A stretch of 64,000 nucleotides of DNA, taken from Parcubacteria group bacterium (GTDB lineage: Bacteria; Patescibacteriota; Minisyncoccia; JACPHC01). The position numbers and the translations under genes were made by a program. The stretch is taken from contig JACPHC010000010.1 in the NCBI GenBank assembly GCA_016188775.1, positions 31,333 to 95,332 of the forward strand. Reading direction: 5' to 3'. The notes below the pieces were generated by a model. It saw nothing but the letters and a program-made list of their open reading frames with translations, made no database searches and was not told the DNA's origin. Shown here piece by piece: positions 324 through 49,906 of the stretch; position 1 is the stretch's first letter, and every line of letters begins with the position of its first letter.

Positions 324-1232
324 ATGGCCAAATCAAGATTGGGAAGGGGACTTTCGTCTCTTATTCCTCAAAAAAAATCAAAAGCCCAAAACGAGCGGGA
401 GAATTTTAACGGCAATGGCTATGAAAATAACGGGAAAACTGAAAGCATTTTTTGGATTGAAATTGAAAAAATCCAGGCGAATCCGGAACAGCCGCGTCAG
501 GAATTCGACAAGGAAAGCTTGGAAGAGCTGGCGGATTCAATTCGCCGCCATGGCATTATTCAGCCCTTGGTAGTGACGAAAATAGAGACGCCGAGCGCTA
601 AAGGCATTGATGTTTCTTATCAGTTAATTGCCGGCGAGCGTCGGCTGAAAGCCGCCAAAATGGCCGGACTTTATCAAGTGCCGTCAATTATTCGCCGGAT
701 GGAATCCGAAAAAGAAAAATTGGAAGTGGCTTTAGTTGAAAATATTCAAAGAAAAGATTTAAATCCGATGGAAAAAGCCGAGGCCTATTTACGGCTGGCT
801 AAGGAGTTTAATTTGACTCAAGCGGAAGTCGGCAAAAAGGTGGGTAAATCAAGGGAATCGGTGGCTAACGCCATTCGTTTGCTTGAATTGCCGTCGGATA
901 TGAAACAAGCGCTTCGCGAAGGGAGGATTTCCGAAGGCCACGCTCGGGCGATTTTGGCCGCCGGCAACCAAGATCATCAAAAAGAAATTTTTTCAGCGAT
1001 TTTAACCGGCGGAGTTTCAGTCAGAAAAACCGAAGAGTTGATCGCTTCCAAAAATATTAAAATAAAATTAGATGCCGATCCTTATGTCAAACAGCTGATC
1101 AGCCGCTTGGAAGACAGATTAAACACGAAAGTTAAATTAAAAGGAAAAACGCATCGCGGCGTTTTGGCCATTGATTATTATTCAAAAGAAGAATTGCAAA
1201 ATATAGCCGATAAAATCGCTCCGGAAGAATAA
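324..1232 (+). CDS. parB: ParB/Spo0J chromosome partitioning protein
   Basis: ParB box GERRLKAAKMAGL; HTH region (LTQAEVGKKVGKSRESVANAIRLL); directly downstream of parA. Confidence 0.9.
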   Translation: MAKSRLGRGLSSLIPQKKSKAQNERENFNGNGYENNGKTESIFWIEIEKIQANPEQPRQEFDKESLEELADSIRRHGIIQPLVVTKIETPSAKGIDVSYQLIAGERRLKAAKMAGLYQVPSIIRRMESEKEKLEVALVENIQRKDLNPMEKAEAYLRLAKEFNLTQAEVGKKVGKSRESVANAIRLLELPSDMKQALREGRISEGHARAILAAGNQDHQKEIFSAILTGGVSVRKTEELIASKNIKIKLDADPYVKQLISRLEDRLNTKVKLKGKTHRGVLAIDYYSKEELQNIADKIAPEE

Positions 1233-6731: not shown

Positions 6732-6820
6732 TGAAACAATTTATACCGTAATTTAGCAACGAATGCAAATATCTTTTTTATTATTTTAATATTAAGATTG
6801 AAAGCGCTTTGCTTTACTAT

Positions 6821-6866
6821 ATTTCACTACAATGACCTCACGATCGTGAGGTCATTGTAGTGAATA
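6821..6866. repeat. perfect 42-46 bp palindrome (family C copy 1), TTCACTACAAT-GAC-CTCACGATCGTGAG-GTC-ATTGTAGTGAA
   Basis: Perfect palindrome centred on CGATCG between the mfd stop and the dprA start; second copy at 61307-61350 has a compensated 3-nt change. Confidence 0.8.
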
Positions 6867-6887
6867 ATTTACACTACTGGACGCCAG

Positions 6888-8840
6888 TTATTTTTTTAGT
6901 TTTTCAATCGCTTCATTGAGCAGTTGATAATAAAGATTCAATCCAACGGCATTAACGCAGCCGGATTGTTTGGCGCCAAGGATATTCCCGGCGCCGCGAA
7001 TTTTCAGGTCGGCCGTCGCGATTTCATAGCCGGCTCCCAAATGAGACATCTGACGCAAAGTCTCCAGCCGCTTTTTGGCTTTTTCCGGAATGCTTAAAGA
7101 GCGGTAAAGAAAATAAGCAAAAGCTTGCCGGTTGCCCCGGCCTACCCGGCCTCTTAATTGGTGCGCTTCGGCCAGACCCAAAAGCGATCCTTCTTCAACG
7201 ATCAGGGTGTTGACATTGGCTAAATCCAGGCCGTTTTCAATGATGGTCGTGGCCATTAAAACTTGAATTTTTTTCTCTCGAAAGTCTTGAATGATTTTAA
7301 GCAGAGATTTCTCGTTCATTCGGCCGTGAGCCGTTTCTATTTTCGGCCAATTTCCATGGCGGTTTTTCTTTAAAATCTTGATCAGATTTTTCTTGGCCGC
7401 TTCAATGGTTTCAATTCGGTTATGCAAAAAGAAAACTTGGCCGCCTCTCTGAAGTTCGTAATTAATCGCCTCTTGAATTATTTTTTTTGAGAACGGCAGG
7501 ACAAAAGTTTTAATCGGAGTTCTGCCCAGGGGCGCCTCGTCAATTCGCGAAAGCGACCTTAACGAAGAAAGAGCCAAAGAAAGAGTGCGGGGGATAGGGG
7601 TGGCCGATAAGCTTAAAATATCCAAAACAGCGCGCATCTTTTTCATTTTTTCTTTTTGGCGCACGCCGAATTTTTGCTCCTCGTCAATTATCAAAAGTCC
7701 GAGATTTTTAAATTCGATGTCCGGAGAAAGCAGGCGGTGGGTGCCGATAATAATGTCAATTTTGCCGTTTTTTAAATCAGCCAGAGTCTGTTTTGTTTCT
7801 TTTTTGGAAAAAAGACGGGAAACGCGCTCGATATTCAAAGGGAATTTTTTAAGCCGATTTTTAAAAGTTTCAAAATGCTGTTGGGCCAGTATTGTCGTTG
7901 GCGAAATCAAGGCGACCTGCGATCCGTTTAGAGCTACTCGAAAGGCCGCGCGCAGCGCGACTTCGGTTTTTCCAAAGCCGACATCGCCGACGACAATTCT
8001 ATCCATTGGGCGTTGACTTTCCAAATCCTTAAAAATTTCACTAATCGTTTTCTTTTGGCTTTCGGTTTCTTGATATTCAAAAGAATCCGTTAGCATTATT
8101 TCTAGGTGTCGGTCCGGAACATAAGGTTTTCGGCCGACCATTTCTCTTTTGGCGTAAATAGCGATTAATTCTTTGGCAAATTCAATTATATTTTCTTTGA
8201 TTTTTTTTCTGGTATTTCCCCAGAGAGGGCTGCCCAAGCGGTGAATTTTGGGAGTTTCAAATCCAAGATACGGGCTGATTTTTTCTTTGAGTCCAAAAGG
8301 AACAAAAAGCAAATCCGGACGACCGCCGATTTTAGGCGGAGCGTATTCTATGATGAAATATTTATTTTGTTTTTTTTCTTGAACGCCCCGAAAGATTCCA
8401 ATGCCGTGATCCAAGTGGACGACATAATCGCCGAGATTAAAGACATCCTCTTTTGATTTTTTGGGCTTTTGCCCGGACAACGTTGTCGGCTCTATTTCAA
8501 TAATTTCTTCAAGCCGGTTGTTTTCAAAATCAAGCCTGATAATTTTTTCAGAGTTTATCGGAAAGATGTCAATAATGCCGCCTTGTTTGGAAAATTCGCC
8601 GGCGGAAAAAACTTTGGAAACTTTTTTGTAGCCCAAATCGTCAAATTGTTTTAAAAGCCGGCTGATGGCAATGTTGTCGTCTTTTCGCAAAAAAAGAGTG
8701 TTTTTTTGGAAAAAAATCTGGGTTTTGGCCGAATTTTTTATTTGATGAAAATTTTCCGAAAACCACAAAACGGGCTTTTCCAAAAAAGAGGGGGTAAGCC
8801 CGGCGATTAAAATTTCTTTTTGTCTGATTAAATTATTCAT
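6888..8840 (-). CDS. mfd: transcription-repair coupling factor Mfd-like helicase, short form lacking the UvrB-homology N-terminal module
   Basis: RNAP-interaction motif GDYVVHLDHGIGIF; Mfd-type Walker A GDVGFGKTEVALRAAF; DEEQKFGV; helicase C motifs (QLRGRVGRG); 650 aa versus ~1150 for canonical Mfd. Confidence 0.7.
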   Translation of the reverse strand: MNNLIRQKEILIAGLTPSFLEKPVLWFSENFHQIKNSAKTQIFFQKNTLFLRKDDNIAISRLLKQFDDLGYKKVSKVFSAGEFSKQGGIIDIFPINSEKIIRLDFENNRLEEIIEIEPTTLSGQKPKKSKEDVFNLGDYVVHLDHGIGIFRGVQEKKQNKYFIIEYAPPKIGGRPDLLFVPFGLKEKISPYLGFETPKIHRLGSPLWGNTRKKIKENIIEFAKELIAIYAKREMVGRKPYVPDRHLEIMLTDSFEYQETESQKKTISEIFKDLESQRPMDRIVVGDVGFGKTEVALRAAFRVALNGSQVALISPTTILAQQHFETFKNRLKKFPLNIERVSRLFSKKETKQTLADLKNGKIDIIIGTHRLLSPDIEFKNLGLLIIDEEQKFGVRQKEKMKKMRAVLDILSLSATPIPRTLSLALSSLRSLSRIDEAPLGRTPIKTFVLPFSKKIIQEAINYELQRGGQVFFLHNRIETIEAAKKNLIKILKKNRHGNWPKIETAHGRMNEKSLLKIIQDFREKKIQVLMATTIIENGLDLANVNTLIVEEGSLLGLAEAHQLRGRVGRGNRQAFAYFLYRSLSIPEKAKKRLETLRQMSHLGAGYEIATADLKIRGAGNILGAKQSGCVNAVGLNLYYQLLNEAIEKLKK

Positions 8841-9016
8841 TTTTAGATGGAGCGTAGGCTTGACTCGCGGAACCGTTGTCGGCTCGCCCCAGCGGCTCGC
8901 CGCAACTTAATTCTCGGCGCCAAAACTTTTGCTTCGCAAAAGACCAATCTTTTGGCGCCTCCGAGATATTCCGCTAAGCAAGTTTACGCTCCGTCTATTT
9001 TAAAATAATCATCCGT

Positions 9017-18752: not shown

Positions 18753-18815
18753 TTTACGAATTATTTGTTTTGTCATTGCGAGTCGGGAGCGAAGCAATCT
18801 CGCGATTATTTTTTT

Positions 18816-18916
18816 AAAGCCGGTCTAATCCGGCGGTCGTAAACTTTTTGGGTGTTTTTACTCTTTGGAGTATTGATCCTGAAAAAGGATGAAGGCCGCC
18901 GGATTAGACCGGCTTT
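18816..18916. other. long hairpin (23-bp stem, ~55-nt loop with an inner hairpin) downstream of the RNR gene
   Basis: aaagccggtctaatccggcggtc … ggccgccggattagaccggcttt, nearly perfect complement; possible terminator or sRNA. Confidence 0.5.
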
Positions 18917-19062
18917 GTCTACTTCATGCTCTAATAATAATTTTTAATTATTTTTTTTATTTTGTTATAATATTTCAAGCATTTACTTGCTATCGCTTAT
19001 AAATGCTAAAATGGATAGTTTATAGTTTTAAGTTTAAAAATTATTAATCTATTTTAAAATCT

Positions 19063-24326: not shown

Positions 24327-24471
24327 GATGCCAGCTTCACTCTAAGGAAGGTTTTAGGACATTCGAATCTCCAGGGAGGCCTATATCTTGTTGTTCCAGT
24401 TCTTTGGAACAGAACAACTTTGCGGCCACCCACTTGGATTTTTGCTAAAACCTCTTGAGAGTTAAGCGTAT

Positions 24472-24503
24472 AAAAAAGTCCCGATTGCATCGGGGCTTTT
24501 TGC
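24472..24503 (+). terminator. rho-independent terminator-like hairpin 40 bp upstream of the Clp ATPase gene
   Basis: aaaaaGTCCCGATtgcATCGGGGCttttt. Confidence 0.6.
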
Positions 24504-24544
24504 TGTTTTATATTTTTTAAAATTTTGTTAAAATAATCACACTT

Positions 24545-26992
24545 ATGTATCAATACCTTTTTTGGCATTACACCGGCGGCATCAAAGGATTTATTGAAAT
24601 TTGGGGCAATTTCATCGAGTTTTTTTGGAATTATTTTTCCATTAAATTGCTTTCCAAAACGCTTTTCGCTCATTGGCATCGGGATATTTCCAAAAGAGGC
24701 CGAGCTTTTCGTTTTGGAGATTTTTTCCAAACCTTGGCTTTTAACGTTCTTAGCCGAATTATCGGCGCCGTTGTTAGATTAGTTGTTATTTTTGTCGGCC
24801 TGTTTTTTGTCATTTTAGCGATGATACTCGGTTTTCTTTTTTTCATAGTCTGGCTGTTTTTACCCGTTTTTATCATCGGCTGTTTGATTCTGGCTTTTGT
24901 TTTATTAAAAAATAATAATGTTTTCGGCAGTTTATCGTTTTTTGTTTTCGCCGCCTTCGCCGCTTTTTTACCCTGGCGTTTTTATTTAATCGCCTCGGAA
25001 AAAACTCCTTCGGAGCTGACCGAAGAAGAAATTTTGAAATCTTCGTTATTTAATTTGATTTTGCAAAGAGCCGGTATTGATCCGAAAATCGTTGGAAAAA
25101 TAAACGCGGGGAATATTAAGGCGGTTTTGGAAGAACATAATATTGCCGAAGAAGATTTTAACGAGATTATAAGTTGGGTTTTTCGAGAATATTATAAAAA
25201 AAGAGAAGCGAGCCGATTTTGGACCAAAGAAAATTTGGCGCGTCGTCGCGGCCTTGGCAAAAATTGGGCTTACGGATACACGATTAATCTTGATAAATTT
25301 TCCAAAGACTTAGGCGAGTTCGGGGCGGGAAAATTGAAGACAGAGCTTATTGGCCGGGACGAAGACATAGAAATAATCGAGAGAATTCTTTCCCGGGCCG
25401 AGGAAAACAATATTTTGATGATTGGCGAGCCGGGCGCGGGAAGAAAAATGGTTATCCAGGGATTGGCTAATTTAGTTTATGAGGGTATGGTTTTGCCGCC
25501 GCTCAAACACAAAAGAATTTTGGAAATAAATCTTGAAGCGTTAATAGCCAGCGCCGGAGCCGACGGGAATCTCGAGAGTCAATTGGCGCTGGTATTCAAC
25601 GAAGCCGTTGGAGCCGGCAATATTATTTTAGTTATCAATGATTTTCATAATTTCGTGGGCGCGGCTTCCGGAGTCGGCAAAATGGATATTTCCAGTTTTT
25701 TGACGCCGTATCTTTCTTCAAAAAATATTCAGATTATCGGCATTACCGATTATAAAGGGCTTCACCGTAACATGGAGGCTAACCCCGGACTTTTGATGTA
25801 TTTTGAAAAAGTTGAAATCAAAGAACCGGATGAAAAAACTTCAATGCTTATTTTGGAAGATATAGTCGGCCGTTTTGAAAAAAGGAGCAATGTTTTGGTA
25901 ACTTATCCGGCCTTGAAAGAAATAGTCAAACAATCCGCTCGTTATTTAAGCGCCGTTCCTATGCCTGAGCGAGCCATTGATTTGTTGGATGAGTCTATGG
26001 TTTATGCCGCGACCAAAACGGACGACCGGTTTTTAAAAATTGAACATATAGATAAAATTCTTTCAGAGAAAACAAAAATACCAATCGGCGAAGTCGGCAA
26101 AAGCGAAAAAGAAAAATTATCTCAATTGGAAAAAATTTTGCATCAAAGAGTGATTGATCAAGAAGAGGCGATTGTGGCTATTTCTCGGGCGATGAGAAGA
26201 TCGCGTTTGGGCGTTGGGGAGACGAAAAAACCCATTGGGACTTTTCTTTTTCTCGGGCCGACCGGCGTTGGCAAGACCGAGACCGCCAAAGCCTTGAGCG
26301 AAGCTTATTTCGGTTCCGAAGAACGAATGGTCCGTTTTGATATGTCCGAATATCAAAATACCGCTGACATCGCTCGATTAATCGGCTCTCCGGAGGGCGA
26401 ACCCGGAGTTTTAACGACCCGAATCAAGGAAAATCCTTTTTCATTGGTTTTGCTCGATGAACTTGAAAAAGCGCACCCGAATATTTTAAATCTTTTTCTT
26501 CAAGTTTTGGATGAAGGATTTTTAACCGACGCTTGGGGCCGAAAGGTGAATTTTCGGAATACTATCATTATCGCCACTTCCAACGCCGGAGCGGAGTTTA
26601 TCAGGGAAATGATTGAGAAAAATATTAACCCGGTCAAAGAAAAAGAAAAATTAATGGACTTTTTGCAGATGAATTCTCTTTTTAAGCCGGAATTTTTGAA
26701 CCGTTTTGACGAGATTGTTATTTTTCACGCTCTATCAAAAGAAAATCTTGTCAAAATCGCGATTCTGCTTTTGCGAAATTTAGCCAAAAGATTGGCGGAA
26801 CAAAAAATTACTTTATCAATAACTCCGGCCTTGGCCGAACGGGTCGCCGAATTGGGCTATAGTCCGGAATACGGCGCCCGGCCAATGAAGCGAGTGATTC
26901 AGGATAGAGTGGAAGATTTGATTTCAAGAAAATTATTGGACGGATCGCTCAAAAAGGGCGACACTTTGGAAATAAAACCGGAGGAAATTTGA
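24545..26992 (+). CDS. Clp/Hsp100-family double-ring AAA+ ATPase with N-terminal transmembrane domain in place of the Clp_N domain
   Basis: N-terminal ~170 aa with several hydrophobic helices; D1 (IGRDEDIEIIERILSR…GEPGAGRK); D2 (GPTGVGKTETAKALS…SNAG); no IGF/IGL ClpP-docking tripeptide seen. Confidence 0.75.
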   Translation: MYQYLFWHYTGGIKGFIEIWGNFIEFFWNYFSIKLLSKTLFAHWHRDISKRGRAFRFGDFFQTLAFNVLSRIIGAVVRLVVIFVGLFFVILAMILGFLFFIVWLFLPVFIIGCLILAFVLLKNNNVFGSLSFFVFAAFAAFLPWRFYLIASEKTPSELTEEEILKSSLFNLILQRAGIDPKIVGKINAGNIKAVLEEHNIAEEDFNEIISWVFREYYKKREASRFWTKENLARRRGLGKNWAYGYTINLDKFSKDLGEFGAGKLKTELIGRDEDIEIIERILSRAEENNILMIGEPGAGRKMVIQGLANLVYEGMVLPPLKHKRILEINLEALIASAGADGNLESQLALVFNEAVGAGNIILVINDFHNFVGAASGVGKMDISSFLTPYLSSKNIQIIGITDYKGLHRNMEANPGLLMYFEKVEIKEPDEKTSMLILEDIVGRFEKRSNVLVTYPALKEIVKQSARYLSAVPMPERAIDLLDESMVYAATKTDDRFLKIEHIDKILSEKTKIPIGEVGKSEKEKLSQLEKILHQRVIDQEEAIVAISRAMRRSRLGVGETKKPIGTFLFLGPTGVGKTETAKALSEAYFGSEERMVRFDMSEYQNTADIARLIGSPEGEPGVLTTRIKENPFSLVLLDELEKAHPNILNLFLQVLDEGFLTDAWGRKVNFRNTIIIATSNAGAEFIREMIEKNINPVKEKEKLMDFLQMNSLFKPEFLNRFDEIVIFHALSKENLVKIAILLLRNLAKRLAEQKITLSITPALAERVAELGYSPEYGARPMKRVIQDRVEDLISRKLLDGSLKKGDTLEIKPEEI

Positions 26993-27348
26993 TGGTCGCG
27001 ATTACTGAACGAAGCTCGAACCTTTTTCGAGCGAAAATCGCTCGAATGATTTGAAACCCCACCCCAGCGTTTCCGCCCGCCGAAACTCGGCGAGCAAAGC
27101 AAAACAATTTTCTTTTCAATTCTTTAATTTTTCGCGCGACCTTTTTTCTTTTAAAAGGAATTGAAAATTGTTTTGCTTTGATGTCTTGATACCAAGACGG
27201 CGGAAACTCTTCCCACCCCATTGCGCTTACGGCGCAGAACAGGCGGGCAAAAATTCCTTCCCCCCAACCCCCTTCCTTTTTGCCCGCCCGCTGGAAACTC
27301 CCAGCGGATTTTTCGGGCGGCGGGCCCTCAAATTGAGTGGTGGGTGGA

Positions 27349-28791
27349 TTATGTTGATTTTGGGATTAGGTTTTCCGCAACTTTCCTGCCAAGATATGAT
27401 AGCATTTTTCCTTCCTCTTCAAAACTTGTAGCGTCTGCCCAGATTAAATTCGCAATTTTTTGTCCCACCACGACTTCCCACGGTTTTGCGCTACCTATTA
27501 TGCCCATTAGATCATTTCGTACTTCTTTAATATCGTAATTTTTTCTATTGTACCCATCTTCTTTAAATCCGTTCATTACGAAAAAATGCGCATGTTGTGA
27601 ATTTGCTTTAAGCCAAGTTTCAATTCGTTGTTTTAATTCATCCCAAGTAACACTTAACGCCTCCAGAACATCATCAGAGAGCAAAAGATTTTCAGCGTTT
27701 CTACAAGATAATTTCATTCTGACTATCGGCAATAAATCGTCAATTGTTTCCTCGCCATCATCCCTATCTCTCAAAGAGTATCCTTTGGCGTTATCGTAAA
27801 CGGTCTGAACAATCTTTTGCGTCTCTTGTTCAAAGTCATTTATGTTACTAACACTATCAACCGAACAAGGGTATATCTTGATTTTGCCGCCGGCTGACCG
27901 GACAGCTTGTTGCCAAATTCGTTCGTCGTCTTCACCCTCAACTAATAAAATTGGAGCTTCATTAAAGAAATTTGATAGTGGATGCGCTCCAAACACCGGC
28001 AAAACTTTTTTATAAACTTCCGAGATAACTTTAAAATCTAATTCTTTTTGGTCATATACCATAAATGCCAAATGTGTATCGGCGTAGGATTCTAAGGCTC
28101 CCAAAATGGCGGTGCTATGAGTAGCAATTACTACTTGAAAGTTATTTTCAGCAACCAATCCTTTCAAGAAGTGCATCAACCGTACCTGTAAATCTGGGTG
28201 CAAATGCACGTCCGGCTCATCAAGAAATAAGATATTTCCTTTATCCGCCAAACATTCTTTACCAAAGATCAGGCACTCAATTCCCAAAGAAATAAGCTCA
28301 CTTTCGCCACTACTAATTGCGTTCGCGTCTAATTTATTCGTTGTTCCTTTTCGATATATCTCAAATGTCGTTTCGTGTCTTTTTATTTCGATATTGTCCA
28401 GCAAAGAGTTAATTTTATTGACGTAGATATCAAAGGTATAATCATTTTGTTGTCTTTTCTCTTTTTCAATTTCTCTCAAAACCAAGGTCTCAAGTTTACG
28501 ATATTGAGCAACGCTTTGCTGCCTAAATCCTGTTGCCTGATTTCGTCTTCTTTGGCCCGAAAGCCAATTTATATCATTTGTCAGACTTTGTTCAACCCCA
28601 GCCTCATAAATTAGCGCACCGCCTCTTTCCGGTGTGATATATTTCGTTTTGTCATAAGTTCCAGTTTGTGAGGAAAGACCTTGCTCAACCAGCCGAAGCA
28701 TTGTGCTCTTACCAGAGCCGTTCTTACCCAAAACGATATTTATTTTGTTTATGTTTTTTAGCGTATAACCGCTAACATTTGAAATATCCAT
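27349..28791 (-). CDS. OLD-family (overcoming lysogenization defect) nuclease: ABC-type ATPase + Toprim
   Basis: Walker A GKNGSGKST; Walker B/H-loop ILFLDEPDVHLHP; C-terminal Toprim-like LLVEGEDDERI … RDRDDGEE. Confidence 0.65.
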   Translation of the reverse strand: MDISNVSGYTLKNINKINIVLGKNGSGKSTMLRLVEQGLSSQTGTYDKTKYITPERGGALIYEAGVEQSLTNDINWLSGQRRRNQATGFRQQSVAQYRKLETLVLREIEKEKRQQNDYTFDIYVNKINSLLDNIEIKRHETTFEIYRKGTTNKLDANAISSGESELISLGIECLIFGKECLADKGNILFLDEPDVHLHPDLQVRLMHFLKGLVAENNFQVVIATHSTAILGALESYADTHLAFMVYDQKELDFKVISEVYKKVLPVFGAHPLSNFFNEAPILLVEGEDDERIWQQAVRSAGGKIKIYPCSVDSVSNINDFEQETQKIVQTVYDNAKGYSLRDRDDGEETIDDLLPIVRMKLSCRNAENLLLSDDVLEALSVTWDELKQRIETWLKANSQHAHFFVMNGFKEDGYNRKNYDIKEVRNDLMGIIGSAKPWEVVVGQKIANLIWADATSFEEEGKMLSYLGRKVAENLIPKST

Positions 28792-28793
28792 AG

Positions 28794-29249
28794 TTATTTA
28801 ATAGCTTTAAGAATCTTATCAGTAACGATTTTGCTTTCAGACTTTATCTGATGCTCCCAAAATCGCAATACGATCCAACCATTTTTTCGCAGATAAGTCG
28901 TAGTTTTTCTGTCTCGTTTGCGATTGTTTTCTATCTTTTCCCGCCAAAAATCGTTCTTTAGCAAATGCTTCCAGCGTGGGCAATACCAACCGTGCCAGAA
29001 ATTACTATCAAGAAAAATACATACCTTATCTTTTTGAAAAACTATATCTGGTTTTCCCTTGATTGACACAACATTCGCTTGGAATTTTTTGTGAGTAGCT
29101 TTCCCCAAAGAAACTATGAATTCTCGCTCGAATTTTGTGTCTCTGGAACGGATTTTTGCCATTAATTCCGACCGCTTTTTTGTCGGGAGTAAGTCGTCGC
29201 TCCGTTCTTTTTTGAAGTTTCTATTTAGATAGTTTTTCGTCTTTTTCAT
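28794..29249 (-). CDS. vsr: very short patch repair endonuclease
   Basis: DTKFEREF…DIVFQKDKVCIFLDSNFWHGW: Vsr signature. Confidence 0.85.
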   Translation of the reverse strand: MKKTKNYLNRNFKKERSDDLLPTKKRSELMAKIRSRDTKFEREFIVSLGKATHKKFQANVVSIKGKPDIVFQKDKVCIFLDSNFWHGWYCPRWKHLLKNDFWREKIENNRKRDRKTTTYLRKNGWIVLRFWEHQIKSESKIVTDKILKAIK

Positions 29250-30286
29250 AGAAGTCCAGCGTCAAAAATATCGGAAGCTTTGACGCCGGACTTAACGAGG
29301 GAAAATTTATCGTTCAAGAGTTTTTTCCACTGCTTCAAGCGATCACTTTCCAATTTTTCGCTTCTCCAATAGTAAGCGATGGTTTTGGCGTCCATCTCCT
29401 TGATTTTTCTTTCAATCGCTTTCGCTCTAACTTGCAAGCGATAAGCCAGTTGTGGCACTACGACATTTTTGCCTTTCACTTTTAATTTAATTTGACCGCC
29501 AGCCGTGAACAAATCTCGCAAGTTTGCGGATACGGCGTTGTATTCGGCGATAAGATAGGCGGCCGCACGCTCAAACTTTGTCGAGCTGTTACCAAACATT
29601 TCAGGAAACAGAATCATCGCTTCAACCACGAAATTTTCTTTTTCTTTGTCGCTCAAACCTCTGAAAGGCTTAATGATAGGACTAACCGCTTTTCCGTCTC
29701 CGTCTTGATCTATCCACCACAATTCCTCACCCTCTTTTAGTTGTGAGCGATAATAATCCTTGATTTTTTGAATTGGGTTAGTGTCATTCCGTAGCGTGTC
29801 ATAATCAATTCCAATCTTATCGAAAATTGATTTACCTGAAGGCAAATCCATGTTTATTCGATAGCGGGGAGAATGGGTAACGCTAATTTCTGGCAGACAT
29901 TCTTGGTAGAGTCGGTAGCGAACATCCAACTCACCGCCGAATTTTCCAAATACGATATAAATTCTTTCAACATCTTCAATACGTGAAGATTCAAGAACGC
30001 TGTTTCCGGTTGATGTCCAATGATCGTTCGCCGTCATTTTAACTTCAACGCCAAAGTATTTGTTGGCGATGATGTCTGGAAAAGCGTGCGTTCCCGTTTG
30101 TTTAACTGTTCCTTCGAAAGTCGTGCCTTTCGCCGCTTCACGAATTTGCTCAAAAACTATCGTTTCAAAATAAGTCGGCGAGATATTTTTCTTGCCACTC
30201 AAAAAGACCAGCATTAACCCCCTTGATTTTTCAAGCAAGGCGATAAAGTCTTTTTCTTTGGCGTTGGGTTTCGCGACGTAAATCAT
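29246..30286 (-). CDS. type II restriction endonuclease candidate (PD-(D/E)xK)
   Basis: FPDIIANKYFGVEVKM contains PD…(E)VK; flanked by dcm upstream and vsr downstream with 4-bp overlaps. Confidence 0.5.
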   Translation of the reverse strand: MIYVAKPNAKEKDFIALLEKSRGLMLVFLSGKKNISPTYFETIVFEQIREAAKGTTFEGTVKQTGTHAFPDIIANKYFGVEVKMTANDHWTSTGNSVLESSRIEDVERIYIVFGKFGGELDVRYRLYQECLPEISVTHSPRYRINMDLPSGKSIFDKIGIDYDTLRNDTNPIQKIKDYYRSQLKEGEELWWIDQDGDGKAVSPIIKPFRGLSDKEKENFVVEAMILFPEMFGNSSTKFERAAAYLIAEYNAVSANLRDLFTAGGQIKLKVKGKNVVVPQLAYRLQVRAKAIERKIKEMDAKTIAYYWRSEKLESDRLKQWKKLLNDKFSLVKSGVKASDIFDAGLL

Positions 30287-30288
30287 AG

Positions 30289-31260
30289 TTATTTCAAATT
30301 TTTATCTAAAAACTTTTCAATCGCCGTGGCGACATGCCAAGCTAAAACAGGCGGCACGGCGTTGCCAATCTGCTTATAAGCCGAGGAAGTGGACGGATAA
30401 AACACAAAATCGTCTGGAAAAGATTGAATCCGTGCCGCCTCTCTCGCCGACAATCTCCTTTTTCCGTTCCAATGATACTCTATGTTTCCGTGGTGTTCCG
30501 TTCGCATTGTTGGCCCCGGCTTATCCGCCGAGACGACCGAATTCCCTTGCCCGTTATTCTTTTTTGCCTTTGACCAGTAGTGATTGGCGATATTCCCTTC
30601 CTCCGCTTTCTCTAAATCGCCAATTGCTTGTTTTAAGCTAACCCAGCTTTTTTCGTCCAAAATCGGTTTTGGATGTTCAAAAGGAGGAAGTTTGTCTTTT
30701 CTTGTTCCAACAATAATAACTCTCTCTCGTGTTTGCGGCACTCCGTAATCAGCGGCCGTGAGTAATTTATAAACGACATGGTATCCCAATTTTTCAAAAT
30801 CCTTAATAATCGTTTGTATCGCTTCACCGCCGTTCATTGTGAGAAGTCCTCGGACATTTTCAGCGACAAATAAAACAGGTTTAGTTCTCTTGATAACTTC
30901 CGCCATGCTTTGATAAAGCAATCCTCGTTTACTATTAAATCCTTTTCTCTTTCCGGCATGGCTAAAATCTTGACAAGGAAAGCCGCCAAGCACTATATCC
31001 ACTTTTTGCGGGATTGGTTTTTCAAAAAAGCCCGAATTGTGTTTGCCGTCAAGAATTTTTCCGATATCGCCGCAAACTATATCGTGCTTAAAGTATTTTC
31101 TAAAGGTGGCACAGGCGGCCTCGTCAATATCGTTCGCCCAAGCAATCTCAAAGTTTCTTTTCGCGTATTTTTTGCCTAAAAATTCAAAATCGCCGACGAA
31201 GCCAAGATCGAGGCCACCGCAGCCCGCAAAAAGTGAAATTATGGAAAATTGTTTCTTCAT
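30289..31260 (-). CDS. dcm: DNA (cytosine-5)-methyltransferase
   Basis: Motif I FAGCGGLDLGF; motif IV GFPCQDFS; motif VI ENVRGL. Confidence 0.9.
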   Translation of the reverse strand: MKKQFSIISLFAGCGGLDLGFVGDFEFLGKKYAKRNFEIAWANDIDEAACATFRKYFKHDIVCGDIGKILDGKHNSGFFEKPIPQKVDIVLGGFPCQDFSHAGKRKGFNSKRGLLYQSMAEVIKRTKPVLFVAENVRGLLTMNGGEAIQTIIKDFEKLGYHVVYKLLTAADYGVPQTRERVIIVGTRKDKLPPFEHPKPILDEKSWVSLKQAIGDLEKAEEGNIANHYWSKAKKNNGQGNSVVSADKPGPTMRTEHHGNIEYHWNGKRRLSAREAARIQSFPDDFVFYPSTSSAYKQIGNAVPPVLAWHVATAIEKFLDKNLK

Positions 31261-31262
31261 AC

Positions 31263-31358
31263 TTTTACTTGATTAAATCATCAACACCAACATCCAACGC
31301 TTTGGCAATCTTGATTAGTGTTTCAATTGTATGGGTTAAAAAGTATTTTTTTACTTTC
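31263..31358 (-). pseudogene. remnant of an XRE-type HTH regulator (possible RM controller-protein fragment)
   Basis: Minus-strand 31-aa ORF MKVKKYFLTHTIETLIKIAKALDVGVDDLIK resembles the C-terminal half of an HTH_3 domain; too short to be functional. Confidence 0.3.
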
Positions 31359-31520
31359 ATCAATTACAATGATAACAAATTTCAAAACACTTATCTAAAC
31401 AAAAACGGAGTTTTTACTTGTTGCGCGCGCACGGGAAGGGTGGGGCAAACGCAACTATTCAACTCAACGCGCGAGCGAAGCGAGCGCGTACCTTCTTCCG
31501 AAAACTCTCAATACCTAACT

Positions 31521-31594
31521 TGGTCGGACCACCCGGAATCGAACCGGGGCTATACCCACCCCAAGGGTACGGACTGCCACTATCCGATGGTCCG
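31521..31594 (-). tRNA. tRNA-Pro (anticodon GGG), CCA encoded
   Basis: Folds by hand into a cloverleaf: acceptor CGGACCA/TGGTCCG, D-loop AGTGGCA, anticodon stem TACCC/GGGTA with loop TTGGGGT, T-arm CCCGG-TTCGATT-CCGGG, 3' ACCA. Confidence 0.8.
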
Positions 31595-32675: not shown

Positions 32676-32814
32676 AAACTTACGGAATTTTAATTTGACA
32701 TTAAAATTTTATTTTGTTAATTTTTATAAAGCGCTAAGCGCTTTATTTATTTAAAGGGCTTTCTCTAAATTTTCAAGCGCCAAGTGCGCAGAAAATTTAG
32801 ATAGAAAACCTTTA

Positions 32815-32914
32815 CCCAGCACATAATTTTACATTCATTCCGTATATTATAAAAAGTTTTTTCGCTATTATACTTATATTTATAATAACGACTATTGTAA
32901 AGTTATGTGCTGGG
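32815..32914. repeat. family D inverted-repeat element copy 1 upstream of rpsL
   Basis: cccagcacataa … ttatgtgctggg perfect 12-bp arms around ~75 nt; second copy at 42153-42258. Confidence 0.7.
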
Positions 32915-49716: not shown

Positions 49717-49906
49717 CAGCGTTGTTTACATTATCCTGCAGGTAATGAGCGCGAAAACACGCTATCAAATTTCCCAGCGAGAAATTTTCGCTTGTTTTCG
49801 GGCTCGCTCGTCTCCCTGCGGGAGACACCTGCCCGCTCGCCTTGCGAGACAGCTTTCTTAGCTCATTACCTGCAGGATACAATACATAAAAGTGTAAACA
49901 ACGCTC
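49717..49906. other. ~190-bp structured element with long two-part terminal inverted repeat and GC-rich hairpin interior
   Basis: cagcgttgtttaca…ttatcctgcaggtaatgagc at the left pairs with gctcattacctgcaggatac…tgtaaacaacgctc at the right; inner hairpins tctccctgcgggaga and gcgagaaattttcgc. Confidence 0.55.

Follow-up and report, generated by a model that had tools for sequence, protein, structure and literature searches.

Between two convergent genes of a Parcubacteria genome, encoding a ClpC/ClpB-type ATPase and an OLD/AriAB-like ATPase, lies a non-coding gap of 356 bp (26993-27348, as delimited by the open reading frames of the window, i.e., the whole 64,000-nucleotide stretch of DNA that was analysed). 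The gap is rich in hairpins, and the question is what kind of element it holds. A reading of the sequence alone had considered either an island-boundary scar with degenerate tRNA 3' fragments or a structured non-coding RNA. Comparison with other genomes, whose loci are referred to below by L numbers, demonstrates that the gap holds a complete copy of a folded repeat of ~330 bases, which is found at the ends of a horizontally transferred restriction-modification (R-M)/defence cassette in candidate-phyla-radiation (CPR) bacteria. The databases and literature that we searched, including for a CPR counterpart, contained no description of such folded island bookends.

Composition, folding and genomic setting of the gap

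The GC content of the flagged region (27000-27345) is 0.494 compared with 0.414 for the window, which corresponds to the 95th percentile of 350-nt windows (maximum 0.56), so that the earlier description of a value far above the window average is correct in direction but overstated. The gap stands out mainly against the other intergenic gaps, which range from 0.21 to 0.43 with one other at 0.50, and is itself a mosaic, with GC contents of 0.70 in 27058-27100, 0.27 in 27095-27180 and 0.59 in 27181-27348. The hairpins named in the sequence-only reading are all present, including GCTCGAA/TTCGAGC (27014-27032), the fully complementary 12-bp stem GGCGGGCAAAAA/TTTTTGCCCGCC (27242-27288) and CCGCTGG/CCAGCGG (27288-27307), and the inverted repeat described there as ~25 bp long has arms of 23 nt with 91% complementarity (27095-27117 / 27158-27180). 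The minimum free energy of the gap is -137 kcal/mol on the plus strand (z -7.66, with none of 100 dinucleotide shuffles as good) and -148 kcal/mol on the minus strand (z -5.79 against dinucleotide shuffles). In a scan of GC-regressed folding energies, several further gaps in the window fold equally well or better. Five gaps (18815-18925, 49720-49890, 8844-8990, 6820-6870 and 32676-32906) contain long near-perfect inverted repeats or hairpins, with arms of 19 to ~30 bp that in some cases enclose ~100 nt, and fold at least as strongly as the flagged region; apart from weak miRNA-like matches, they have no Rfam match at E up to 1. A structured gap of 289 bp upstream of ClpC has a match to the rimP leader (24440-24529, plus strand; 34 bits versus a gathering threshold of 47, E 0.1), which is probably a chance match, though the leader region folds strongly.

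The R-M/ATPase island starts at a tRNA-Pro gene and has the gap as its outer boundary (Table 1), as the suggestion of an island boundary had anticipated. Neither a transposase nor an integrase was found in the cargo of the window, for which Pfam and PADLOC searches recovered only the methyltransferase (MTase), restriction endonuclease (REase), Vsr and ATPase genes. At the left end of the island, the remnant of the C gene is fused behind an intact-looking C promoter, and the start codon of the MTase follows 5 nt further on. Only 65 nt separate the tRNA-Pro gene from this left frame (31265-31460), and therefore the left repeat copy is absent in the window. Thus, the island in the window is decayed, having no left copy and a truncated C gene, which makes any role of the repeat at the DNA level a historical one at this locus.

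Table 1. Features of the repeat unit and of the adjoining island, in window coordinates
Feature	Coordinates	Strand	Basis or remark
ClpC/ClpB-type ATPase gene	24545-26992	+	Gene 5' of the gap
Complete right-hand copy (IR-R) of the structured repeat unit	26995-~27327	+	Homology to the L168, L156 and L203 copies
Hairpin P1	27014-27020/27026-27032	+	5' hairpins, 27014-27046
Hairpin P1b	27026-27034/27038-27046	+	Mutually exclusive with P1
Three-way-junction domain	27069-27207	+	Covariance model R1
P2, closing helix	27069-27077/27199-27207	+	
P2a	27078-27083/27087-27092	+	
P2b, long AU-rich hairpin	27095-27112/27163-27180	+	18 bp
P2c	27183-27188/27193-27198	+	
Linker motif CCCACCCCA	27212-27220	+	Kept in the type-1 copies L168_R, L203 and L170
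P3, GC hairpin	27222-27236	+	TGCGC-TTACG-GCGCA
P4, 12-bp stem and conserved C-rich loop	27242-27288	+	23-nt loop TTCCTTCCCCCCAACCCCCTTCC
P5, intrinsic terminator	27288-27313	+	CCGCTGG-AAACTC-CCAGCGG, then ATTTTT; points from ClpC into the island
Conserved right-end tail TCAAATTGAGTGGTGGGTGGA, 20 nt	27328-27348	+	Outside the inverted repeat, between it and the last cargo gene
OLD/AriAB-like ATPase (AAA_15/AAA_21), 480 aa	27349-28791	-	Best PADLOC matches AriAB, AriA, PtuA, GajA and Old
Vsr	28794-29249	-	Cargo operon
Type II REase	29246-30286	-	Cargo operon
C5 cytosine MTase	30289-31260	-	Cargo operon, 27349-31260
C-gene remnant, last 21 codons only	31265-31330	-	Translated as TIETLIKIAKALDVGVDDLIK*, corresponding to the C-terminus of the C-protein
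Conserved C-protein promoter region	31326-31460	-	87% identical to L166 325-458
tRNA-Pro(GGG), 3' end towards the island	31521-31594	-	ARAGORN; 53.6 bits in Rfam (gathering 29)

Left island ends share the promoter region and a 71-aa HTH C (controller) protein. This family is extremely conserved across many CPR lineages and phyla, with 1769 homologues found, the best 120 of which are at least 87% identical. The R-M genes between the shared parts of the frame differ from island to island. The ATPase is found as the last gene of very different defence operons (L166-L186), and since homologues with 62-85% identity occur in unrelated CPR and other lineages, it is horizontally mobile. This level of identity is seen across hosts whose housekeeping proteins are 44-59% identical, and the partners of the ATPase elsewhere include AlwI, HinfI, MmeI-like type IIG, GmrSD, a DUF559 helicase and HARE-HTH/PDDEXK proteins. 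The ATPase seems to be a portable module that accompanies R-M systems in an accessory role.

We compared the gap with known families of RNA and with the neighbouring tRNA. No Rfam 15 family was recognized in the region, whether in a local search (E up to 10) or across the whole window (E up to 1); the copies of L203 and L156 described below were negative too. The best local match, CRISPR-DR22, scored 21.7 bits versus a gathering threshold of 50 (E 0.067), and the remaining ones were generic miRNA hairpins. These negatives rest on the E-value mode, as the gathering mode misses even the tRNA-Pro gene, which scores well above its threshold. Local alignments of both strands with the tRNA-Pro gene, its 3' half, and the tRNA plus trailer gave p-values of 0.14, 0.46 and 0.06, respectively, against 300 shuffles, and degenerate tRNA 3' fragments are thus not supported for this copy. 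The motif CCCACCCCA, which the earlier reading had placed twice in the region and once in the anticodon arm of the tRNA, is present at 27058, 27212 and 31555, with the original positions off by one, but its count is not beyond chance (five occurrences versus 6.1 expected when one mismatch is allowed). The tRNA resemblance proposed for the region around this motif is not significant, the shared TGGGGTGGG being only the anticodon arm of a GGG tRNA. It had also been reasoned that without an Rfam match, a tRNA alignment or expression the region would be simply a compositional remnant; the two sequence comparisons are negative, but other genomes have conserved the element, and the general lesson of the case is that the lack of an Rfam match and of tRNA similarity does not equal a remnant.

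Several other identities were considered and rejected. A conserved RNA linked to ClpC was sought at 160 loci of ClpC homologues from CPR genomes and metagenomes (the nearest 54-59% identical), of which ~150 have a measurable downstream gap, and the downstream spacers are mostly short and never similar by blastn or nhmmer. Nine short open reading frames (21-105 aa) overlap the region, but none has a plausible translation, and those of 245-258 aa called across some copies in other genomes are judged spurious, because the indels between copies are not multiples of three. No blastn match was found in phages or plasmids, and three pattern scans of viral contigs returned either nothing or chance matches without the element. 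A dispersed repeat of the MITE or REP type was rejected as the unit has a single copy in the 64-kb window, and in 1.46 Mb of other CPR DNA the covariance model R1 recovered only the L156 copy, which lies beside an ATPase gene (the remaining matches have E-values of 0.04-0.08). The element is not a general trailer of tRNA-Pro, being absent from three tRNA-Pro genes without islands. Finally, retrons, T-boxes, RNase P, tmRNA, 6S and SRP RNAs were dismissed, as there is no reverse transcriptase, regulated downstream gene or matching model.

Copies, fold and inversion of the repeat unit

Full-length homologues of the window unit were identified at L168 (7449-7797, minus strand, and 826-1174, plus strand), L156 (11839-12150, plus strand) and L203 (4223-4552, plus strand, and 9671-9328, minus strand), and the conservation of the 330-bp unit in other genomes is 73-86%. 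At L168, the DNA downstream of the ATPase gene (7449-7797) is homologous to the whole gap of the window, and the 3' end of a tRNA-Pro(GGG) gene lies 13 nt further on. The second copy at this locus is inverted at the opposite end of the island, is identical to the first at 274 of 325 positions and is preceded by a 16-nt tRNA 3' fragment. At L156, a diverged copy adjoins the 3' end of the ATPase gene and infC is located on the other side. The copies at L166, L170 and L176 are partial and occupy one end of the island or both. In L166 and L168, the unit begins 0-13 nt from the 3' end of tRNA-Pro and in the same orientation; L170 has only a partial copy, ~90 nt downstream of tRNA-Pro and also in the same orientation. 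For the family as a whole, the earlier suggestion of a link to the tRNA 3' end therefore came close.

A second type of island was found via the C-protein homologues and comprises ten loci (L203-L212) with an HTH-MTase-HinfI-UvrD cassette. These cassettes lack the OLD-like ATPase, yet carry the unit at both ends in inverted orientation, with partly deleted copies in L205 and L206. At L203, both copies are identical at all 330 positions, spanning from GTCGCAATTACTGAACG to ...CGGGCGGCGTGGCC, and we set the boundaries of the unit where these two copies cease to be identical. Past the repeat, the right copy continues into the tail TCAAATTGGGTGGGTGGGG after a UvrD-like gene, and the same tail follows the ATPase gene in the window, L168 and L166, whereas the left copies run on into the C-protein promoter in place of the tail. 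Thus, a terminal inverted repeat is present in L203 (330/330) and in L168 (274/325), the second copy being absent in the window. Of the features of an integrase-mediated tRNA island, adjacency to tRNA-Pro was found, but the repeats are inverted and there is no integrase inside the unit. Neither a transposase nor an integrase was found inside the L166, L168, L170 and L203 cassettes. The only recombinase near the unit is a large serine recombinase at L203 (2349-3953, minus strand), which lies outside the cassette, between a tRNA-Pro(CGG) gene and the left repeat. At L206, the left repeat is replaced by a sequence containing a fragment of an IS110-family transposase (2590-2985). As several copies are partly deleted (L166, L170, L176, L205 and L206) or missing (the left copy in the window), individual copies are dispensable.

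Although the L203 and L204 loci share 99.8-100% identity, their cassettes point in opposite directions with respect to the SecA flank, with the switch located within the repeat. This pair represents a live inversion polymorphism and shows that recombination between the copies inverts the cassette. In a similar way, the window and L168 carry their islands in opposite orientations at the same host locus, which consists of an M50 protease, a small protein and tRNA-Pro. Between them, the repeat is 86% identical in nucleotides and the ATPase 85% identical in amino acids, compared with 44% for the M50 protease; it follows that the repeat moves together with its island and recurs at tRNA-Pro. For comparison, the best relative of the window's ClpC in the databases is 59% identical. 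No target-site duplication was seen at L203, where the flanks ...TTTAGATTG and AAGGTTAATTG... form no direct repeat.

The unit in the window extends from its outer end GTCGCGATTACTGAACG, 2 nt past the stop codon of ClpC, to the inner end ...CGGGCGGCGGGCCC. Every copy starts with the outer terminus GTCGCRATTACTGAACG, beyond which the sequences are unrelated between copies. Downstream of this terminus, the unit is organized as a series of helices (Table 1), and its copies vary by module, with type-1 and type-2 3' halves. At the position of P1/P1b, L203 has a different hairpin, TTTCTGCCC-TAAC-GGGCAGAAA. The linker at 27212-27220 is complementary to the G-rich tail at 27338-27346. P3 is longer in L168_R and L203 and has a C(UUCG)G-type loop there. 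The P4 stem reads GGCGTGGCGGAA/TTCCGCCACGCC in L168_L, which amounts to five double compensatory changes with the loop unchanged, and it is rewritten in L156 too, again with the loop kept; P3 and P5 vary likewise. The C-rich loop of P4 is found in seven out of eight copies, whereas in a rearranged copy at L166 (8177-8250) the usual stem encloses a loop inverted to its G-rich complement, which suggests a hairpin-mediated inversion of DNA. P5 consists of seven pairs (six of them GC) with a 6-nt loop followed by ATTTTT and is the sole terminator-like site on the plus strand in 26500-27900; its variants in L170, L176, L168_L and L156 retain a T-run of T4 to T7, and the loop of the L205 variant carries an insertion. 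In addition, an alternative pairing of the 3' arm of P4 with a downstream GGCGG segment is conserved in both 3' variants.

Two side observations concern the sequence of the unit. An exact 19-mer, CGCCCCAGCGGCTCGCCGC, is common to the P2/P2a region of the L203 copy and to window positions 8885-8903, where it sits within another structured GC-rich (0.50) gap, and it may represent a hairpin module common to both sites. Short-read contigs of the same strain in the Logan assemblies of three runs (L001, L002 and L163-L165) all break inside the unit. Contigs coming from the ClpC side end at window positions 27034 and 27058, and those coming from the ATPase side end at 27267, within the poly-C loop of P4; the breaks are caused either by strain variation or by sequencing trouble in G/C runs. 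The strain occurs in SRR12113420, SRR12113422 and SRR12113424.

The covariance model R1 represents the junction domain and was built from three copies. It finds the copies of L156 (73.6 bits) and L203 (53.1 bits), which were not used in training, over the whole length of the model. In an alignment of five distinct sequences, compensatory changes occur in 24 out of 39 pairs of the junction domain and 96% of cells are paired. This set consists of five independent full-length sequences, three of them from the training of R1, in an alignment fitted to the structure. In slid controls, pairing dropped to 40-54% with 4-10 compensatory pairs, and among 1000 permutations it reached at most 85% with at most 15 compensatory pairs. 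Judging from these comparisons, the fold of the unit is conserved as well as its sequence and appears to be under selection. The wobble counts are neutral (four G.U versus three A.C), and therefore pairing alone selects neither a strand nor RNA over single-stranded DNA. Strand-specific features, namely the T-run after P5 in all variants, the C-rich loop of P4 and the UUCG-type loops of P3, favour the plus strand.

Proposed role and alternative readings

The unit forms the terminal inverted repeat of a mobile cassette of defence genes, and in the reading that we favour, and consider reasonably probable, its copies serve as recombination arms and as a transcriptional insulator. Complete islands carry the second copy in inverted orientation at the other end, so that both terminator hairpins point inward, and the unit moves between distant hosts together with its cargo frame, which comprises the promoter and gene of the C-protein at the left end and, at the right end, the tail, frequently accompanied by the OLD-like ATPase. 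Transcription arriving from outside would, as far as can be read from the sequence, enter the hairpins and stop at P5, and this stop would shield the R-M genes, whose mis-expression is toxic, from the context of insertion. In the window, P5 would stop read-through from ClpC that would otherwise be antisense to the ATPase-Vsr-REase-MTase operon, whereas in the relatives the incoming transcript would be that of tRNA-Pro. The 18-bp duplex of P2b and the other hairpins could, speculatively, add processing or stability. Consistent with an insulator, the P5 hairpin and its T-run face inward at both ends of the L203 island, where the terminator precedes a promoter-like site of the C gene by ~90 nt, and in the window ClpC ends 2 nt before the unit without any other terminator. 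On the other side, a single terminator hairpin would be enough for insulation, leaving ~300 nt of conserved structure unexplained; the cassettes have no transposase or integrase inside and no target-site duplication at L203; and the five independent sequences, three of which were used for training, are few.

In two other readings, the fold itself would be active. The unit may encode a stable structured RNA of ~300 nt that is cut from tRNA-Pro or ClpC read-through, has its 3' end at P5 and acts in island biology, e.g., as a regulator of R-M establishment via its C-rich loops or as a scaffold or guide in recombination, but we regard this as unlikely. The strong covariation of a multi-helix fold with conserved loops argues for such an RNA, together with the plus-strand features (the T-run after P5, the C-rich P4 loop in seven of eight copies and the C(UUCG)G loops of P3 in L168_R and L203), the alternative pairing of the 3' arm of P4 with GGCGG kept in both 3' variants, and the position of the unit in relatives, where it starts 0-13 nt past the tRNA-Pro 3' end and reads in the same direction, as a processed tRNA trailer would. 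The structured non-coding RNA of the sequence-only reading is thus upheld as far as a conserved, covarying fold is concerned, but no Rfam family was recognized even at E up to 10 and no promoter-like site was found on the plus strand in 26500-27900. Moreover, the P4 loop is flipped to its G-rich complement in one copy, many copies are truncated with the cargo apparently unaffected, and the sole copy in the window, the right-hand one, faces the 3' end of a convergent gene, with nothing downstream for regulation in cis.

The strand-neutral pairing statistics would also suit folded single-stranded or cruciform DNA that is recognized by a trans-acting recombinase or transposase, as in integron attC sites and IS200/IS605 ends, in which case the unit would mark the actual terminus of a non-autonomous transposon with the tRNA-Pro 3' end as its target. 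We consider this quite improbable, although a number of observations are in line with it: the outer terminus is sharp and identical in all copies whatever the flank, the structure is more conserved than the sequence, the same tRNA-Pro target is used in hosts that are 44% identical in a neighbouring protein, a tRNA 3' fragment adjoins the distal copy in L168, and the large serine recombinase is encoded just outside the left copy of L203. There are also published R-M units that lack a transposase and have inverted repeats on both sides (PMC2853133). A recombinase is, however, not consistently linked to the unit, as none was found in the island of the window or in L166, L168 and L170; furthermore, no target-site duplication was seen at L203, ~330 bp far exceeds the known hairpin recombination sites, and the conserved T-run after P5 would have no role. 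The adjacency of the island to tRNA-Pro, the position of the unit directly after the tRNA in relatives and the 16-nt tRNA fragment at the far end of L168 could also be taken as signs of a decayed attachment site of which degenerate 3' fragments of tRNA-Pro are left, and there is a loose resemblance between the first bases, TGGTCGCGATTA, and the 3' strand of the acceptor, TGGTCCGACCA. Such a scar is highly improbable and, while the outermost ~10 nt may conceivably derive from one, is already contradicted for the bulk of the element: alignments of tRNA-Pro to both strands fall within the shuffle distribution, ARAGORN detects no tRNA-like gene in the region, and 330 bp conserved at 73-86% with covarying helices in other genomes are unexpected of a decaying scar.

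It is also conceivable, though unlikely, that the ~330-nt unit represents a new class of structured nucleic acid, carried by islands and active in the mobility or control of the cassette. The unit would be produced as RNA, either a tRNA-Pro trailer or a read-through product, or be exposed as folded single-stranded DNA, and would serve, for example, as a guide or scaffold for insertion at tRNA-Pro and for the flipping or exchange of the R-M cargo, or as a riboregulator of R-M establishment in a new host. A role of this kind would explain why the whole fold, beyond the terminator, is conserved across CPR phyla.

Significance and comparison with known systems

The genomes of CPR/Patescibacteria are tiny, and little is known about how these bacteria acquire and exchange defence genes. 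The element marks a compact and widespread vehicle for such genes in CPR bacteria, with interchangeable R-M modules and an OLD-like ATPase, which sits at tRNA-Pro and flips in natural populations. A covarying fold at island boundaries is unusual and provides a covariance-model signature with which such cassettes can be searched for. If the fold does act in mobility or regulation beyond termination, it would add a new kind of component, made of RNA or single-stranded DNA, to what is known of mobile defence elements.

BOX, REP/BIME and Correia elements are modular structured intergenic repeats that are dispersed in genomes. Similar to these, the unit is a mosaic of hairpin modules located at gene ends, with variants formed by module loss, insertion and swap; in contrast, it is not dispersed and always occurs at the edge of one type of island. 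Rho-independent terminators serve as insulators at the ends of mobile elements, and the GC hairpin with a T-run at the inner edge of each copy, oriented against incoming transcription, corresponds to this arrangement, although here ~300 nt more of conserved structure lie upstream and the insulator role is a prediction. As in integron attC sites and IS200/IS605 ends, the fold is conserved while the sequence of the stems drifts, but the unit has no IntI or TnpA partner, is several times longer and includes a three-way junction and a terminator. Islands targeting tRNA genes are characterized by insertion at the tRNA 3' end, a distal tRNA 3' fragment, foreign cargo, an integrase, direct repeats and a short att core. 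The cassettes share with them the insertion at a tRNA 3' end, the distal tRNA fragment (L168), the foreign cargo and a common target across hosts, whereas no integrase is found within the unit and the repeats are inverted and hundreds of base pairs long.

One R-M example of a tRNA-targeting island has been described by Furuta, Abe and Kobayashi 2010 (PMC2853133). The same work defines the nearest published category, i.e., 'transposon-like' R-M units with inverted repeats of 26-65 bp and 8-bp target duplications, and reports no structure for these repeats. Both those units and the cassettes described here contain R-M genes without a transposase of their own, inverted repeats that are unique to the inserted unit and cargo that varies between related units, and both are linked to genome rearrangement. 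The cassettes of CPR bacteria differ in that no target duplication was seen and that they combine a tRNA-Pro site and a conserved C-protein frame with repeats of ~330 bp, each of which forms a covarying multi-hairpin module with an inward terminator.
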